From the IMG/VR virus record IMGVR_UViG_2541047905_000019: a stretch of DNA of 5,093 nt; one strand, given 5' to 3'. The notes below the pieces were generated by a model. That model ran no database searches. It saw nothing but the letters and a program-made list of their open reading frames with translations, and was not told the origin of the DNA. The DNA comes from a virus (lineage: Duplodnaviria > Heunggongvirae > Uroviricota > Caudoviricetes). Below are positions 1 through 5,093 of the stretch, piece after piece. The position numbers were made by a program, and so were the translations under genes. Numbering within the stretch: the first letter of the stretch is position 1; each line of letters starts with the position of its first letter.

Positions 1-177
1 GCGGAGGTAATACACCGTAAGAGCTGGAAAAACCGTGCAGAAGTGGAACTGGCCACACTCACGTGGGTGGACTGGTATAACAATCGACGATTGCTGGAAA
101 GGCTGGGCCATACTCCTCCGGCAGAAGCAGAAAAAGCTTATTATGCTTCCATCGGAAACGATGATCTGGCAGCCTGA
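1..177 (+). CDS. IS3-family (IS629-like) transposase OrfB, C-terminal 58 codons; 5' partial, runs off the window start
   Basis: Frame +1 is open from position 1 to TGA at 175-177. Translation AEVIHRKSWKNRAEVELATLTWVDWYNNRRLLERLGHTPPAEAEKAYYASIGNDDLAA matches the conserved C-terminal tail of IS3-family DDE transposases (WxxWYNxxRxHxxLG-like motif). Confidence 0.85.
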   Translation, partial: AEVIHRKSWKNRAEVELATLTWVDWYNNRRLLERLGHTPPAEAEKAYYASIGNDDLAA

Positions 178-219
178 GTTCACAGATAAAATACTCTCCA
201 GGAAACCCGGGGCGGTTCA
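1..219 (+). mobile_element. Right-hand end of an IS629-type insertion sequence (IS3 family); the element continues upstream of the window
   Basis: Transposase OrfB C-terminus in frame +1 (1..177) is followed by the terminus ...GGAAACCCGGGGCGGTTCA ending at 219. This is the reverse complement of the TGAACCGCCCCGGG... end I recognise as the IS629/IS1203 terminal inverted repeat, and ends in the CA typical of IS3-family termini. From 220 the sequence is in-frame HD-domain coding sequence with no start codon. Exact IR length not verified. Confidence 0.8.
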
Positions 220-680
220 ATATCGCGGTTTCCCTTTCAAATATCTGTCGCTTTGCAGGACATCTTTCACACTTCTACAGTGTCGCCCAGCATGCGGTGC
301 TTTGCAGCCAGCTGGTGCCGCAGGAATTTGCTTTTGAAGCGTTAATGCATGATGCAACAGAAGCGTATTGCCAGGATATTCCCGCTCCACTGAAACGCCT
401 TCTTCCTGACTATAAACGGATGGAAGAAAAAATAGACGCCGTAATCCGTGAGAAATACGGGTTACCCCCGGTTATGAGCACGCCTGTGAAATATGCCGAT
501 CTCATCATGCTGGCAACCGAACGCCGCGATCTCGGGCTTGATGATGGCTCTTTCTGGCCAGTACTGGAAGGTATCCCGGCAACAGAAATGTTCAAAGTTA
601 TTCCACTGGCTCCGAGCCATGCCTACGGGATGTTTATGGAACGTTTTAACGAGTTATCGGAGTTACGCAAATGCGCATGA
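220..680 (+). pseudogene. yfdR: HD-domain metal-dependent phosphohydrolase (YfdR-like 5'-nucleotidase family), 5'-truncated by the IS insertion
   Basis: Frame +3 is open from 165 through TGA at 678-680 with no ATG/GTG/TTG before the GTG at 297. Translation from 222 reads IAVSLSNICRFAGHLSHFYSVAQHAVLCSQLVPQEFAFEALMHDATEAYCQD..., carrying the H...HD metal-binding signature. The reading frame crosses the IS terminus, so the native N-terminus and start are missing. The yfdR name is from memory of the E. coli K-12 CPS-53 homologue and is unverified. Confidence 0.6.
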
Positions 681-1033
681 ATGTTTTCGAAATGGAAGGG
701 TTTCTTCGCGGGAAATGTGTACCACGAGATCTGAAAGTGAATGAAACAAATGCTGAGTACCTGGTACGTAAATTCGATGCGCTTGAAGCTAAATGTGCGG
801 CACTGGAAAACAAAATAATACCAGTGTCAGCTGAACTGCCGCCAGCAAATGAAAGTGTTCTGTTATTTGATGCTAACGGAGAAGGCTGGCTAATTGGCTG
901 GCGTTCTCTCTGGTACACCTGGGGACAAAAAGAAACCGGAGAATGGCTGTGGACATTTCAGGTCGGGGACCTTGAAAACGTCAATATCACTCACTGGGCA
1001 GTAATGCCGAAAGCACCGAAGAATAAAAAATGA
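671..1033 (+). CDS. DUF551-domain prophage protein (YfdS-like), 120 aa
   Basis: ORF 671..1033 with GGAG at 659-662, 8 nt upstream of ATG 671; a second ATG at 677 overlaps the upstream stop as ATGA. C-terminal region ELPPANESVLLFDANGEGWLIGW...NVNITHWAVMPKAP matches my recollection of the DUF551 pattern (LPxxxxxVLv...G...W....THWmPlP). Family name and YfdS resemblance are from memory. Confidence 0.7.
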   Translation: MRMNVFEMEGFLRGKCVPRDLKVNETNAEYLVRKFDALEAKCAALENKIIPVSAELPPANESVLLFDANGEGWLIGWRSLWYTWGQKETGEWLWTFQVGDLENVNITHWAVMPKAPKNKK

Positions 1034-1233
1034 GCGTGATAAAAACTCATACAGGAATTGTTATCACCCGAGACGGTCCGCAGGTAAAAAAACTGCACCA
1101 GACAAAGCGGATGTGGGTCGTCGGAAAAAACGAGTTTTACCACAAAGAAACCGGACGCCGCCACTTTGCAGAAAATACTCGCCGCCGACTGCTGATCGAT
1201 ACCATCAAGCCTATCGAGGTGAAGCATGTTTAA
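1030..1233 (+). CDS. Hypothetical small basic protein, 67 aa
   Basis: ATG at 1030 overlaps the upstream stop (ATGA at 1030-1033). The protein has 15 K/R against 6 D/E plus 5 His, which would suit nucleic-acid binding. Weak SD (GAAGA at 1018-1022). No family recognised. Confidence 0.5.
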   Translation: MSVIKTHTGIVITRDGPQVKKLHQTKRMWVVGKNEFYHKETGRRHFAENTRRRLLIDTIKPIEVKHV

Positions 1234-1465
1234 ACAGAACGAAAAATCTATCGCTCAAATTGCTGAGTATATCCCGCGTGCGTGCCGGGGTATGCAGTTG
1301 CAGGAAGCCAAAGCACGCCTGGAGAAAAAAATTGCGCTCTATATCGATGACGGCTGTGATACTGCCGTTCTTAACGCGGCGTTCGCGCCAGCTCTTAACA
1401 GTCATACGCGAAAGTCTTTTTTTTCGTGCATCGCAGCGCAGATCCGTAAAGGAGGCAACCAGTGA
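1226..1465 (+). CDS. Hypothetical protein, 79 aa
   Basis: ATG at 1226 preceded by GAGG at 1216-1219 (6-nt spacer). Overlaps the upstream gene by 8 nt out of frame (ATGTTTAA). No family recognised. Confidence 0.55.
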   Translation: MFKQNEKSIAQIAEYIPRACRGMQLQEAKARLEKKIALYIDDGCDTAVLNAAFAPALNSHTRKSFFSCIAAQIRKGGNQ

Positions 1466-1998
1466 GCAACATTAACTATCAGGTACTGCGTGAGGCGGCA
1501 GAACGTGCAATTCCAGCAATGGAACGCCTGTTAATGTTGCCAGCTGATGATGATTTGTTAAGTGAACAGGAACTTAAAGATTACGGTGTGGATATTGATG
1601 CGCTCAATGCCTTCAAATTTCTGACCGGACCAGAAACCGTGCTGGCACTACTGGATGAACGGGAAAGAAACCAGCAATACATCAAACGCCGCGACCAGGA
1701 GAACGAGGATATTGCGCTTACGGTTGGGAAGCTGCGCGTTGAGCTTGAAGCAGCAAAATCAAAACTCAACGAGCAGCGCGAGTATTACGAGGGAGTTATC
1801 TCTGATGGGTGCAAGCGTATTGCTGAACTGGAAGCGCGGGAAGTTCAATTACCGACTCGCTACGACCTTCGATATGGACACCCGATAAATGCAGATGAGC
1901 GACAAGTCATGATACCTAAAGAAAATGGCAGTTGGCTTTACCTGATTGACCTAGAACACGCATTACGCGTCGCTGACATTCGCATCAAAGGAGAGTGA
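1462..1998 (+). CDS. Ead/Ea22-like prophage protein with central coiled-coil, 178 aa
   Basis: GTG start at 1462 overlaps the upstream stop (GTGA), with a strong SD AGGAGG at 1450-1455. N-terminus MSNINYQVLREAAERA... and the motif PETVLALLDERE resemble the Ead/Ea22-like family common in E. coli lambdoid prophages (from memory). The heptad-like, charged segment RDQENEDIALTVGKLRVELEAAKSKLNEQREYYE suggests a coiled coil. Confidence 0.6.
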   Translation: MSNINYQVLREAAERAIPAMERLLMLPADDDLLSEQELKDYGVDIDALNAFKFLTGPETVLALLDERERNQQYIKRRDQENEDIALTVGKLRVELEAAKSKLNEQREYYEGVISDGCKRIAELEAREVQLPTRYDLRYGHPINADERQVMIPKENGSWLYLIDLEHALRVADIRIKGE

Positions 1999-1999
1999 T

Positions 2000-2263
2000 A
2001 TGGCAACTTTGACAAAAAAAGAACAAGCATGGTTGAGCGAATTACAGGACGTTCTTGATCGCTGCCCATCACCGAAAAAAATTGGTTTTTACACCATTGG
2101 CGATAAAAGCATTTACCTGTATGACCTGCGCCGCATGGATGAAATCATGGAGGCTCTTGATAATCGTTCGTCAATGGATTGGTGTGTTGCTGTTCATGAT
2201 ATGAATGCCGGATTTGATGAAAAGATTTTATTCCCCTCATCAGTTGAAAGTACAGCAGGATAA
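2000..2263 (+). CDS. Hypothetical protein, 87 aa
   Basis: ATG at 2000 lies 1 nt after the upstream stop (TGA 1996-1998); SD AGGAGA at 1989-1994. No family recognised. Confidence 0.6.
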   Translation: MATLTKKEQAWLSELQDVLDRCPSPKKIGFYTIGDKSIYLYDLRRMDEIMEALDNRSSMDWCVAVHDMNAGFDEKILFPSSVESTAG

Positions 2264-2273
2264 GGACTAACAC

Positions 2274-3035
2274 ATGACCACTATTACCAAAGAGCGACTG
2301 CTGACAATCAGGCAGTGGCGCGAAACATACGGACCTGGTAGCAACGTTGTACTGCCAGCAGAAGAAGCGGAAGAACTGGCACGAATTGCTCTGGCATCGC
2401 TGGAAGCAGAGCCGATAGGTTTCCGTTGCAGGCGCAATGATAACCTTGGTGATTGGAGTTACGTATATCATCGAGAGCCAGATGATTTTGAGCGCAAACA
2501 TTTAGTGATAGAGGGCATTTACGCCGCCCCTCCAGCACCGGTAGTGCCTGAAGAAGCAACTCCGGAAAACGTAGAAATGCTCTCTGGCTATGTTTCAACG
2601 TACAAATTAACCGATAGCGAGCGCGATATTGCTGCCGAAATATGGAACGCCTGCCGCGCCGCCATGCTTCAGTCCGGAAACTTTCGGGAAAACAAGAATT
2701 CGTCAACCAATAATTTTCGGGAAATCGCGGAAACGTCAACCAACTATCCGGCAATTCCTAGTGAGGTGTTGTCCGCAATCCTGAAGGTTGCCAGGATTCG
2801 TGCCGATTTCGATGATTTTGACGGTGACAGGCGAGGTATCGGTGATTGTCTGGATGAGGCTGAGCAAGAGCTTATCGTTACCATTAACAAATATGCCAGT
2901 CAGTTGGCAGCAGAACCTATAGCGCCTAATGACGTTCGAGAGCAGACAGCCATTCCACAAGTTCCGGTAACTCCGGATGGTTGGATAAGCTGTAGTGAGC
3001 GAATGCCGGACGACAGGCAGGAGGTGAATCAATGA
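2274..3035 (+). CDS. Modular acidic prophage protein, 253 aa, with a Pro-rich linker, an internal duplicated segment and a C-terminal fragment resembling the start of a DUF551 domain
   Basis: ATG at 2274 with AAGGA at 2263-2267. Contains the linker AAPPAPVVPEEATPE, the in-frame repeat NFRENKNSSTN/NFREIAETSTN, and ends ...PDGWISCSERMPDDRQEVNQ*. That ending resembles the start of the DUF551 region in the 671..1033 protein (VSAELPPANESVLL) but stops before the W...THW..P part. Confidence 0.65.
   Translation: MTTITKERLLTIRQWRETYGPGSNVVLPAEEAEELARIALASLEAEPIGFRCRRNDNLGDWSYVYHREPDDFERKHLVIEGIYAAPPAPVVPEEATPENVEMLSGYVSTYKLTDSERDIAAEIWNACRAAMLQSGNFRENKNSSTNNFREIAETSTNYPAIPSEVLSAILKVARIRADFDDFDGDRRGIGDCLDEAEQELIVTINKYASQLAAEPIAPNDVREQTAIPQVPVTPDGWISCSERMPDDRQEVNQ
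2679..2744 (+). repeat. Imperfect 33-bp direct tandem duplication (2 units) inside the 253-aa CDS
   Basis: Unit 1 (2679..2711) aactttcgggaaaacaagaattcgtcaaccaat versus unit 2 (2712..2744) aattttcgggaaatcgcggaaacgtcaaccaac: 25 of 33 positions identical, with TTTCGGGAAA and CGTCAACCAA blocks conserved at fixed 33-bp spacing. In frame, so it encodes an 11-aa repeat. Confidence 0.8.
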
Positions 3036-3115
3036 GCTGGCCTGATGCAATCGTAACTCTGGGGGTGGTCTTCGCAGCAGCGTTTGTTGTGTTCTCGATT
3101 TGTCGATGGGGATAA
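3032..3115 (+). CDS. Micro-protein, 27 aa, predicted single transmembrane helix (MSWPDAIVTLGVVFAAAFVVFSICRWG); not in the supplied ORF track
   Basis: ATG at 3032 overlaps the stop of the 253-aa gene (ATGA). Strong SD GGAGG at 3020-3024 with a 7-nt spacer. An 18-residue hydrophobic core is flanked by W/D at the N-side and R/W at the C-side. Stop TAA at 3113-3115. Confidence 0.5.
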   Translation: MSWPDAIVTLGVVFAAAFVVFSICRWG

Positions 3116-3119
3116 CCAC

Positions 3120-3362
3120 ATGTTCGCTTTGATTCAACGCGGTCAGATATACACGGACAGAGCTGGATACCCCGTGGTGATTACTCGCATCACTGAGCAC
3201 TCAGTGTTCTTTCGACGGATGGACGGACGATCCGGGCGGGTACGCATTGGTGAGTTAAACTGCCTGTTCGAACATATTGACCACCAGGAGTACCGCAAAA
3301 TTCTCGCGGACACTGAGCAGGAAAAGCACCTGAAAAAATTACGAGCCATGAAAAGGAAGTAA
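3120..3362 (+). CDS. Hypothetical small prophage protein, 80 aa (possibly DUF4222-like)
   Basis: ATG at 3120 preceded by GGGGA at 3108-3112. The track's 3084 start is TTG with no SD and overlaps the micro-ORF, so ATG 3120 is preferred. Sequence MFALIQRGQIYTDRAGYPVVITRITEHSVFFRRMDG... The DUF4222 label is a tentative recollection. Confidence 0.65.
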   Translation: MFALIQRGQIYTDRAGYPVVITRITEHSVFFRRMDGRSGRVRIGELNCLFEHIDHQEYRKILADTEQEKHLKKLRAMKRK

Positions 3363-3365
3363 ACA

Positions 3366-3500
3366 ATGAATAAAGCATTTGAACGATGGGTCCACCAGCG
3401 TTACGGCAATCGCTATGATCTGACGCGAGATGTTGACGGTTTCTACTGTCGTGAAGTTGTGAAGCGAATGTTTGAAGTGTGGTGCCACTGCCGTGGATGA
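3366..3500 (+). CDS. Micro-protein, 44 aa, Cys/His-containing (MNKAFERWVHQRYGNRYDLTRDVDGFYCREVVKRMFEVWCHCRG); not in the supplied ORF track
   Basis: ATG at 3366 lies 3 nt after the upstream TAA, with SD AGGAAG at 3354-3359 (6-nt spacer). Stop TGA at 3498-3500. Cys28, Cys40, His41 and Cys42 could form a small metal site. Sits immediately upstream of xis. Confidence 0.45.
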   Translation: MNKAFERWVHQRYGNRYDLTRDVDGFYCREVVKRMFEVWCHCRG

Positions 3501-3518
3501 AAGTTTTATGAGGTTGGC

Positions 3519-3773
3519 ATGCAGACAATCATCTATCAGATAACCCCCAGCAAATGGTGTACGGAGAGAGTCCTTATTGCATCAACAGGGCTAAAGCCTG
3601 GCACCATTGAGCGGGCAAGAAGAAAGTCATGGATGCAGGGAAAAGAATACCGCCATTACGCTGTAGAAGGTGATCCGGGGCACTACAGTGAATGCCTGTA
3701 CAACATCGAAGAAATTATGCGATGGATCGAAAACCAGAAACAACCAGGTGCCAAAAATGCAAGTTCCGGTTAA
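3519..3773 (+). CDS. xis: Excisionase-like protein (lambda Xis-type winged-helix recombination directionality factor), 84 aa
   Basis: ATG at 3519 with GAGG at 3510-3513. Position immediately upstream of int. The pattern ...SKW...GLKPGTIERARRK....GKEYRHY... parallels the lambda Xis pattern (...eW....sletvrrWv......G.reYlfh). Confidence 0.65.
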   Translation: MQTIIYQITPSKWCTERVLIASTGLKPGTIERARRKSWMQGKEYRHYAVEGDPGHYSECLYNIEEIMRWIENQKQPGAKNASSG

Positions 3774-3806
3774 CCTGTTAATGCTCCTGGACGTCTGGGA
3801 GGTTTA

Positions 3807-5093
3807 ATGAGTAACGCATCATACCCGACAGGCGTTGAAAACCATGGAGGATCACTCCGTATATGGTTTCACTATAATGGCAAACGTGTCAGAGAAAACC
3901 TCGGTGTTCCTGACACAGCCAAAAACCGGAAGATCGCTGGTGAACTTCGCACTTCCGTTTGTTTTGCAATCAGAATGGGGAGTTTCGACTACGCCGCGCA
4001 GTTCCCTAATTCCCCTAACCTGAAACACTTTGGTCTGGGAAAAAGAGAGATAACCGTTAAGGCACTTTCGGAAAAATGGTTGGACCTTAAGAAAATTGAG
4101 ATTTGTGCGAATGCACTTAACCGTTACCAGTCAGTAATTAAAAACATGTTACCAATGTTAGGTGAAAAAAAACTGGTTTCATCCATAACAAAAGAGGATT
4201 TACTTTTCGTAAGGAGAGATTTGTTGACCGGTTACCAAAAGCTTTCTAATGGAAAGACTTCTTCCATAAAAGGGCGCTCAGTGGTCACGGTAAACTACTA
4301 TATGACAACCATAGCTGGAATGTTTCAATTTGCAACAGATAATGGTTATACCTCAGGAAACCCATTTAACGGTCTGGCTCCCTTAAAAAAGTCCAAGGTA
4401 AAACCAGATCCTCTCACCCGTGACGAATTTATTCGTTTTATTGAGGCTTGCCGTCATCAACAAACAAAAAACCTGTGGATTCTCGCTGTATACACGGGTA
4501 TTCGTCACGGGGAGTTGGTATCGCTGGCATGGGAAGATATAGACCTTAAAGCAAGGACTATAACCATCCGTAGAAATTATACAAAACTTGGCGAATTCAC
4601 TCCACCAAAAACCGATGCAGGCACCGGAAGGACAATTCATCTGGTTCAACCAGCTATTGATGCTCTTAAAAGCCAGGCGGAAATGACCATGCTTGGAAAG
4701 CAACATTCTGTAGAGGTGAAGCAGAGGGAATATGGGAGAACTGCTGTGCATAAATGCACTTTTGTTTTTAGTCCTCAGGTAACAAAACAGCAGCAGTTGT
4801 CCGGACCTCACTACAAGGTTGACTCCATCAGGGAGTCATGGACAAGTATCTTAAAACGCGCAGGTCTGAGACACAGAAAATCGTACCAATCCAGGCATAC
4901 TTATGCATGCTGGTCACTTGCCGCAGGAGCTAATCCTAGTTTTATCGCAAGCCAGATGGGCCACACAAACGCACAAATGGTATTCAATGTTTACGGAGCA
5001 TGGATGAAAGACAACAATCACGAACAGATAGAACTCCTTAACAAAAGACTATCTGAAAGTGTCCCATGTATGCCCCATAAGAAAGTTGGGTAA
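3807..5093 (+). CDS. int: Phage integrase, tyrosine site-specific recombinase, 428 aa
   Basis: ATG at 3807 preceded by GGGAGG at 3797-3802. C-terminal catalytic motifs are present: box I LAVYTGIRHGELVSLAWEDIDL (Arg) and box II SRHTYACWSLAAGANPSFIASQMGHTNAQMVFNVYGAWM (R-H...GH...Y). The N-terminus (LRIWFHYNGKRVRENLG) resembles an arm-type DNA-binding domain. Stop TAA at 5091-5093 is the last codon of the window. Confidence 0.9.
   Translation: MSNASYPTGVENHGGSLRIWFHYNGKRVRENLGVPDTAKNRKIAGELRTSVCFAIRMGSFDYAAQFPNSPNLKHFGLGKREITVKALSEKWLDLKKIEICANALNRYQSVIKNMLPMLGEKKLVSSITKEDLLFVRRDLLTGYQKLSNGKTSSIKGRSVVTVNYYMTTIAGMFQFATDNGYTSGNPFNGLAPLKKSKVKPDPLTRDEFIRFIEACRHQQTKNLWILAVYTGIRHGELVSLAWEDIDLKARTITIRRNYTKLGEFTPPKTDAGTGRTIHLVQPAIDALKSQAEMTMLGKQHSVEVKQREYGRTAVHKCTFVFSPQVTKQQQLSGPHYKVDSIRESWTSILKRAGLRHRKSYQSRHTYACWSLAAGANPSFIASQMGHTNAQMVFNVYGAWMKDNNHEQIELLNKRLSESVPCMPHKKVG

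Follow-up and report, generated by a model that had tools for sequence, protein, structure and literature searches.

The DNA analysed here, a stretch of 5,093 nucleotides from a viral record that is referred to throughout as the window, opens with the end of a transposase gene and passes at position 220 into the coding sequence of an HD-domain protein that has no start codon. The locus raises the question of how the two came to be joined, whether the missing part of the interrupted gene was lost or merely displaced, and what the event would mean for the genes downstream. A recent insertion of an IS629 isoform (1310 bp) into the yfdR gene carried by a lambdoid prophage that lies in mlrA, with duplication of the target triplet ATA, is very probably the whole explanation.

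Identity of the insertion element

The features at the left end of the window are as follows.

1..177, + strand: 3' end of the transposase gene orfB, comprising the last 58 codons and the TGA stop at 175-177 (translation, Pfam and nucleotide identity)
178..219, + strand: right end of the IS beyond its coding sequence, with the right inverted repeat, closing with ...CCCGGGGCGGTTCA at 219 (shared ends and homology breakpoint)
220..222: right ATA copy of a 3-bp target-site duplication, yfdR nt 77-79 (only a 3-bp removal rebuilds the empty site)
220..680, + strand: 3' fragment of yfdR, nt 77-537, with codons 27-178 read from 222 (identity to the intact allele and match to PDB 2gz4)

By its sequence, the element in the window is of the IS629 type within the IS3 family, and window positions 1-219 are its right end; matching full copies are 1310 bp long. 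The motif CCGGGGCGGTTCA terminates at window position 219, and the 13-mer ...CCCGGGGCGGTTCA also closes 1310-bp elements at four other E. coli loci (L002-L005), the opposite ends of which open with the inverted TGAACCGCCCCGG. The terminal inverted repeats, which start with TG and end with CA (in IS629, TGAACCGCCCCGG...), are located at window 207-219 on the right and at position 8353 of the source scaffold (L006, described below) on the left. The C-terminal piece of OrfB, only 58 residues in length, scored 23.5 bits against Pfam rve_2 (cut-off 22) and 22.8 bits against rve_3 (cut-off 26.5). Its translation from the + strand, running to the stop at 175-177, agrees with the original prediction that the transposase reads in the same direction as the operon.

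Many copies annotated as 'IS3 family transposase' have a right end that is 100% identical to bases 1-219, and 216/219 positions are shared with the O157 element that PGAP names IS1203. The assembled left end of the IS matches IS1203 at 296/310 positions. A full copy from strain ML35 (L004 510-1819), the right end of which is 100% identical to the window, was used as a proxy for the whole element and is identical to IS1203 at 1254/1310 positions (95.7%), while plasmid copies that are 99.6% identical to this proxy carry the depositor label 'IS629 transposase OrfA/OrfB'. By the ISfinder rule, isoforms are elements that share 95% or more of their nucleotide sequence with a named one, and both the assembled ends and the 1254/1310 proxy reach this level against the named IS629/IS1203. 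Rump et al. 2011 (PMC3271280) count IS1203 and IS3411 among the isoforms of IS629 and give a divergence of 4-5% between its sub-types; an identity of 95.7% to IS1203 is of the size to be expected from this, and the label 'IS629-type' is correct.

The present element has in common with IS629/IS1203/IS3411 of E. coli and Shigella the terminal repeats TGAACCGCCCCGG..., a 3-bp target duplication and a prophage-rich distribution (PMC3271280). Copies with identical ends measure 1310 bp and, where annotated, contain orfA and orfB, linked through a -1 programmed frameshift; this length and organization hold for the related copies, the source copy being gapped in mid-element. The isoform differs from the O157 IS1203 sub-type in that it is about 95.7% identical to it over the full length of the proxy, and in that the source copy is not assembled through its middle.

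Insertion site and target duplication

The whole window was compared by megablast with 5426 complete E. coli genomes, and the matches to the flanking DNA all begin at position 220, so that the IS629-type terminus lies at 219 as had been predicted from the end motif. Positions 220-5093 (4874 bp) are 100% identical in four genomes with no interruption, those of UPEC129, NR301, M15 and AH21H025. This comparison recovered the intact HD gene, which is yfdR, 537 nt in length. As a truncated yfdR product should be unique to genomes that bear the insertion, the 127-aa protein expected from gene calling at GTG 297 served as the query for the other flank of the IS. One metagenome contig with the same 127-aa gene call (L007) was discarded, as it showed only homopolymer-type single-base differences, a coverage of 0.56 and no IS.

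The entire window was found at positions 9705-14797 of a 476-kb NCBI scaffold, GCA_000460555.1 (KE701846.1; L006). On this scaffold the left end of the IS is at 8353 and is directly preceded by codons 1-26 of yfdR; the second copy of the duplicated triplet lies on this side of the IS, outside the window:

L006 8350-8352: left ATA copy of the target-site duplication

A run of 1040 N (L006 8663-9702) fills the interior of the IS, and the first base of the window (L006 9705) lies 2 nt beyond it; the IS length of 1571 bp implied by the scaffold is a gap estimate only. When 400 nt to the left and 400 nt to the right of the IS were joined and one ATA was removed, the result was an exact substring of the UPEC129 locus, while trimming 2, 4 or 5 nt instead of 3 failed to rebuild it. 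The target-site duplication, anticipated at 3-4 bp, is thus ATA, 3 bp, the usual size for IS629, which occasionally duplicates 4 bp, and the insertion point falls between codons 26 and 27 of yfdR (Asp26 / Ile27).

As removal of a 3-bp duplicate restores the empty locus without any mismatch, the event is read as a simple transposition of an IS629 isoform into yfdR in which nothing was deleted and the gene was split. The joining of the two flanks and the length and intactness of the source IS copy rest on the scaffolding together with the perfect target duplication. That the IS-yfdR junction is an assembly artefact, a chimeric join at a repeat, is scarcely credible: the window does open 2 nt past a run of N, and the source assembly has collapsed the IS as a repeat, but both junctions are contiguous sequence running 310 and 221 bp into the IS, and a matching 3-bp duplication flanks a site that other strains have uninterrupted.

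It is also highly improbable that an IS-mediated deletion or rearrangement removed the 5' end of the gene and an upstream part of the operon. Seen in the window alone, yfdR does lack its 5' end, which had led the original prediction to describe the HD gene as having lost it, and a comparable rearrangement is known from O111:H8 strain SF26 102-1, where IS1203 stands at yfdR nt 68 and the left flank is a lysis gene. In the source scaffold, however, codons 1-26 of yfdR sit immediately to the left of the IS, with yfdQ and yfdP beside them, and the empty site is restored exactly with its 3-bp duplication. Unless the scaffold join over the N gap is wrong, a deletion is already refuted and simple transposition stands.

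Probable inactivation of yfdR

The intact allele, which equals the window over nt 77-537, encodes a protein with 175 of 178 residues (98%) identical to K-12 YfdR (b2361), and it is annotated in UPEC129 as 'yfdR (5'-deoxynucleotidase)'. In the K-12 protein, the only one for which 5'-deoxynucleotidase activity or DnaA binding is known, binding to DnaA has been described; multicopy yfdQRS or yfdQRT inhibits replication initiation, and deletion of yfdQRST in K-12 gives no replication phenotype (PMC4776307). The H50 and H69-D70 residues of the H..HD motif are visible in YfdR and are retained in the 3' fragment. YfdR scored 24.4 bits against the Pfam YfbR-like family (cut-off 25.9), also fell below the cut-off for HD_3, and was far below that of NCBIfam NF003009, while the structure PDB 2gz4 aligns with residues 18-175 (E=8e-14); the profiles support the HD fold less firmly than the gene's name would lead one to expect.

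The frame that continues yfdR is open from 165 to 680. In frame 3 of positions 1-680, no in-frame ATG, GTG or TTG occurs before GTG 297 (Val52), which upholds the earlier observation that the HD gene has no start on the window side, and no Shine-Dalgarno-like sequence was seen by eye upstream of this GTG. The 5' fragment now encodes 26 native residues followed by 9 derived from the IS. Since a product begun at GTG 297, the sole remaining in-frame start, would drop His50, the first catalytic histidine, the split allele is almost certainly null.

Age and distribution of the junction

The 33-nt junction sequence was absent, in an exact-match scan, from GTDB representative genomes and JGI metagenomes, and no junction-spanning match of at least 95% identity was found by megablast among the 5426 complete E. 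coli genomes. That search gave only non-identical junctions, at 91-92% identity, and the case of H26, where yfdR is intact and the IS stands about 445 bp upstream of it. As the flank is 100% identical over 4874 bp to its uninterrupted relatives, the insertion is, judged from these alignments, a recent and strain-specific event.

Prophage and operon context

The genes around the insertion, on the source scaffold and in the window, are listed below.

L006 4637-4837, - strand: P22_Cro-like gene (profile match)
L006 4935-5561, + strand: CI-type repressor, HTH_3 and Peptidase_S24 (profile match)
L006, between the repressor and yfdP: 167-aa gene on the other strand than the repressor
L006, upstream of the window: yfdP, then yfdQ (DUF2303), then the split yfdR
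671..1033, + strand: yfdS homologue, 120 aa, 115/117 (98%) identical to K-12 YfdS
1030..3500, + strand: seven early-left genes, of 67 aa, 79 aa, 178 aa (Ead/Ea22-like), 87 aa, 253 aa, 80 aa (DUF4222) and 44 aa
3519..3773, + strand: excisionase xisR (DUF1233), PF06806 at E=2e-29; L006 13223-13477
3807..5093, + strand: tyrosine integrase, 428 aa, the stop codon ending on the last base of the window; L006 13511-14797

The order in the scaffold runs from the CI-like repressor and Cro-like gene through yfdP-yfdQ-yfdR-yfdS to xis-int and is the same in UPEC129. The interrupted gene had been taken for the first of the operon; it is the third, after yfdP and yfdQ. Ten co-oriented genes lie downstream of yfdR with spacings of -10 to +84 nt, in keeping with the tight packing noted originally; the end of yfdR and the start of yfdS share 10 nt, and a GGAG belonging to yfdS stands 8 nt ahead of its ATG. 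With a CI-type repressor, a divergent Cro-like gene and an xis-int end beside the attachment site, the layout may fairly be called an early-left operon by synteny with lambda. A search for the upstream promoter of the operon returned weak consensus matches only, and no N-like gene was identified. In NCBIfam no family was above threshold for YfdR, YfdS, YfdP, YfdQ or the excisionase, and Rfam at gathering thresholds gave no match.

The cryptic prophage CPS-53 (KplE1) of K-12 has the same yfdP-yfdQ-yfdR-yfdS order, with YfdR and YfdS each 98% identical. The two differ in that CPS-53 is located at argW, whereas the present prophage has a 428-aa integrase and lies in mlrA, and in that yfdS is followed here by Ea22-like, DUF4222 and xisR genes rather than by yfdT-torI.

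In the source, a 5'-truncated mlrA adjoins the integrase. The prophage occupies the 5' end of mlrA (yehV), at L006 14798-15519 and L001 8875-9596 (in K-12, L015 2867-3598); the lysogen mlrA is 687 nt against 732 nt in K-12, and homology starts near mlrA nt 45. Stx phages in O157 use this site. Integration should separate mlrA from its promoter.

Three further features of the operon were observed. The 253-aa open reading frame (2274-3035) matches, at its extreme C-terminus, only the first 16 of the 68 DUF551 positions, and the 84-nt space behind it (3036-3119) is the largest in the operon; this end and gap look like a recombination or deletion scar. The Ead/Ea22-like open reading frame (1462-1998) is intact at 178 aa with a full Pfam match (E=2.5e-36), while the identical stretch of UPEC129 (L001 5300-5614) is given in RefSeq as a pseudogene with a shorter piece, a difference of annotation and not of sequence. 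Just past yfdQ, about 100 nt before the yfdR start, a GC-rich hairpin AAAUGCCCCUGCGGGGGCAUUU is present at L006 8158-8180; it is terminator-like with a poor U tract, and in NZRM3614 an IS1203 is inserted right at it.

Promoters at the IS end and transcription downstream

A scan for sigma-70-like consensus sites returned none in window 1-1100 and none in a whole 1310-bp IS copy. The whole window contains one weak promoter-like site on the + strand, fewer than in shuffled sequence, and this scarcity fits a dependence on upstream transcription, although it is no proof of it. The hexamers TTCACA (179-184) and TAAAAT (187-192) are present where they had been reported, but this pair, put forward as a weak and poorly spaced candidate promoter, has a spacer of only 2 nt. 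Read directly, no -35-like hexamer stands at a distance of 16-18 nt upstream of TAAAAT (best 1/6 matches), and there is no TG extension. Positions 187-192 read TAAAAT in this isoform and TAAAAC in IS1203, the T at 192 being isoform-specific; TAAAAT would be a better outward -10-like hexamer than its IS1203 counterpart, but one with no usable -35, and it is the one slight indication of an outward -10. A junction RNA fold, in which GGAAACC of the IS pairs with GGUUUCC of the target, was considered as a terminator and rejected (z = -1.1, not significant; no U tract).

We therefore regard it as very unlikely that the IS activates the cassette, with an outward or junction-hybrid promoter driving yfdS through int, as had been suggested. 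The transposase is co-oriented with the operon, TAAAAT replaces TAAAAC at 187-192, and with no strong + strand terminator at the IS end low-level read-out from the transposase is possible. Set against this are the absence of promoter-like sites from window 1-1100 and from the full IS copy, the failure to find a -35 at 16-18 nt or a TG extension, and the 2-nt distance between the two hexamers. The one review consulted mentions IS629 solely under IEE-mediated excision and deletion and not as a promoter donor (PMC9330008).

The simple insertion would instead be expected to lower transcription of the genes behind it. As first proposed, it would separate the cassette from its native promoter, since the IS lies between the cassette and whatever promoter drives yfdR; some 1.3 kb would now stand between that promoter and the ten downstream genes. 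Transcripts from upstream would have to pass through the IS and, after it, through some 450 nt of yfdR remnant that is not translated, which is the classical setting for Rho-dependent polarity, and expression from yfdS to xis is thus probably reduced. As xis is at the far end of the operon, reduced transcription would, by analogy with lambda, be expected to weaken excision on induction. Any residual downstream expression would come from read-through rather than from a new promoter.

Polarity of this kind is a reasoned expectation only, and read-through is possible. A search of the + strand for intrinsic terminators gave no strong one within the IS or at the junction, and the yfdR remnant is not markedly richer in C than in G and has no clear rut-like region. 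The ribosome-binding site of yfdS counts against polarity, and if the prophage has antitermination like that of lambda, this would suppress it. Classical polar insertions are those of IS1 and IS2 in gal and lac. The present arrangement resembles these in that an IS interrupts a long operon of co-directional genes in a gene near its promoter and leaves, ahead of the distal genes, a remnant that is not translated; it differs in that the polarity is deduced here and that phage antitermination could cancel it.

Recurrent insertions around yfdQ and yfdR

Seven distinct IS629/IS1203 events, the present one at nt 77 included, were found near the yfdQ-yfdR boundary in different prophages, at sites in yfdQ, at -116 and -82, and at yfdR nt 33, 68, 77 and 88. 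The three at nt 68, 77 and 88 share one orientation and lie inside 21 bp; those upstream have the opposite orientation. The other events are as follows.

yfdR nt 68, same orientation: O111:H8 SF26 102-1, left flank rearranged
yfdR nt 88, same orientation: four O157:H7 genomes (e.g. ECP19-598), simple insertion with target-site duplication TCC
yfdR nt 33, opposite orientation: O111:H8 8E
-82 and -116 in the yfdQ-yfdR spacer, opposite orientation: NZRM4169, NZRM3614, and O157:H7 AC-3 and AC-5 (the last two assigned by match span only)
inside yfdQ: Z1323CEC0019
L003 2791-4100, L005 2791-4100 and L010-L013 1289-2598: coordinates of IS629/IS1203 copies near yfdQ-yfdR

The O157:H7 (ECP19-598) and O111:H8 (SF26 102-1) insertions resemble the present one in gene and orientation and lie within 11 bp on either side of it; they differ in belonging to other prophages and to another IS sub-type, in their position (nt 88 and 68 as against 77) and, for SF26, in the rearranged left flank. 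An apparent bias towards one orientation (3/3) vanished once insertions in the opposite orientation were searched for.

In O111:H8 8E, the opposite-orientation IS1203 ends at L010 2598 (yfdR nt 33), and the 173-aa yfdR of the RefSeq annotation (L010 2582-3103) starts at 2582, inside the IS; a start codon supplied by the IS is possible. Strain M15 has an IS903B at the start of the 79-aa gene (L009 4010-5066, corresponding to window 1220-1228) with the 9-bp duplication TGAAGCATG, and at positions 1-52 of a metagenome contig (L008) an IS903-type end abuts yfdR at about window position 272, so that other IS families also strike this operon.

In the target of the present insertion, GGTTTCC (228-234) is complementary to GGAAACC of the IS right end (201-207). 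It starts 9 nt past the IS end, 4 nt from the duplicated ATA, and the TCC duplicated by the O157 insertion lies inside it. A relation to the target choice of IS3-family elements, which may favour sites resembling their inverted repeats, is possible.

The number of events raises the alternative that the insertion was not neutral, either because the yfdQ-yfdR boundary is a preferred target of IS629 or because insertions are selected there, whether for silencing a DnaA-binding inhibitor of replication or for locking the prophage in place. We consider this, with its selection variant included, unlikely. In its favour are the seven events near the boundary, with three in one orientation within 21 bp, the hits by IS903-type elements, and the DnaA binding of YfdR with the inhibition of initiation by multicopy yfdQRS or yfdQRT (PMC4776307). 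On the other side, prophages are the usual home of IS629, with 62% of its sites in O157 lying in them (PMC3271280), and lineages rich in IS629 carry many lambdoid prophages with yfdR, which inflates the number of targets. Both orientations occur overall, each event is restricted to one or a few genomes, and the K-12 yfdQRST deletion had no effect on replication (PMC4776307). A true IS629 hot spot covering the yfdQ-yfdR spacer and the beginning of yfdR, directed by sequence (GGTTTCC) or maintained by selection through the silencing of a DnaA-binding inhibitor or through a block of xis that fixes the prophage, seems to us unlikely. The recurrent events may reflect a regional hot spot, or damage tolerated in the multi-copy prophage DNA of IS629-rich lineages; a selective explanation is possible but unsupported.

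Significance of the insertion

A recent transposition of an IS629 isoform into yfdR is an already known kind of event, made of known parts, and is ordinary overall. The insertion, a strain-specific IS629 polymorphism, is of a sort that already serves for the subtyping of pathogenic E. coli, and it has little meaning beyond strain typing. The repeated IS629 events around yfdQ-yfdR are a mild curiosity. If the region were a true hot spot, the window would exemplify a path to prophage domestication that has been taken repeatedly. Repeated loss of yfdR would hint at a fitness cost of this gene, YfdR being a documented DnaA-binding protein. If the insertion is polar, the lysogen would express less of the products from YfdS to Xis on induction and might excise poorly, which would make the event a small step in the decay of the prophage.
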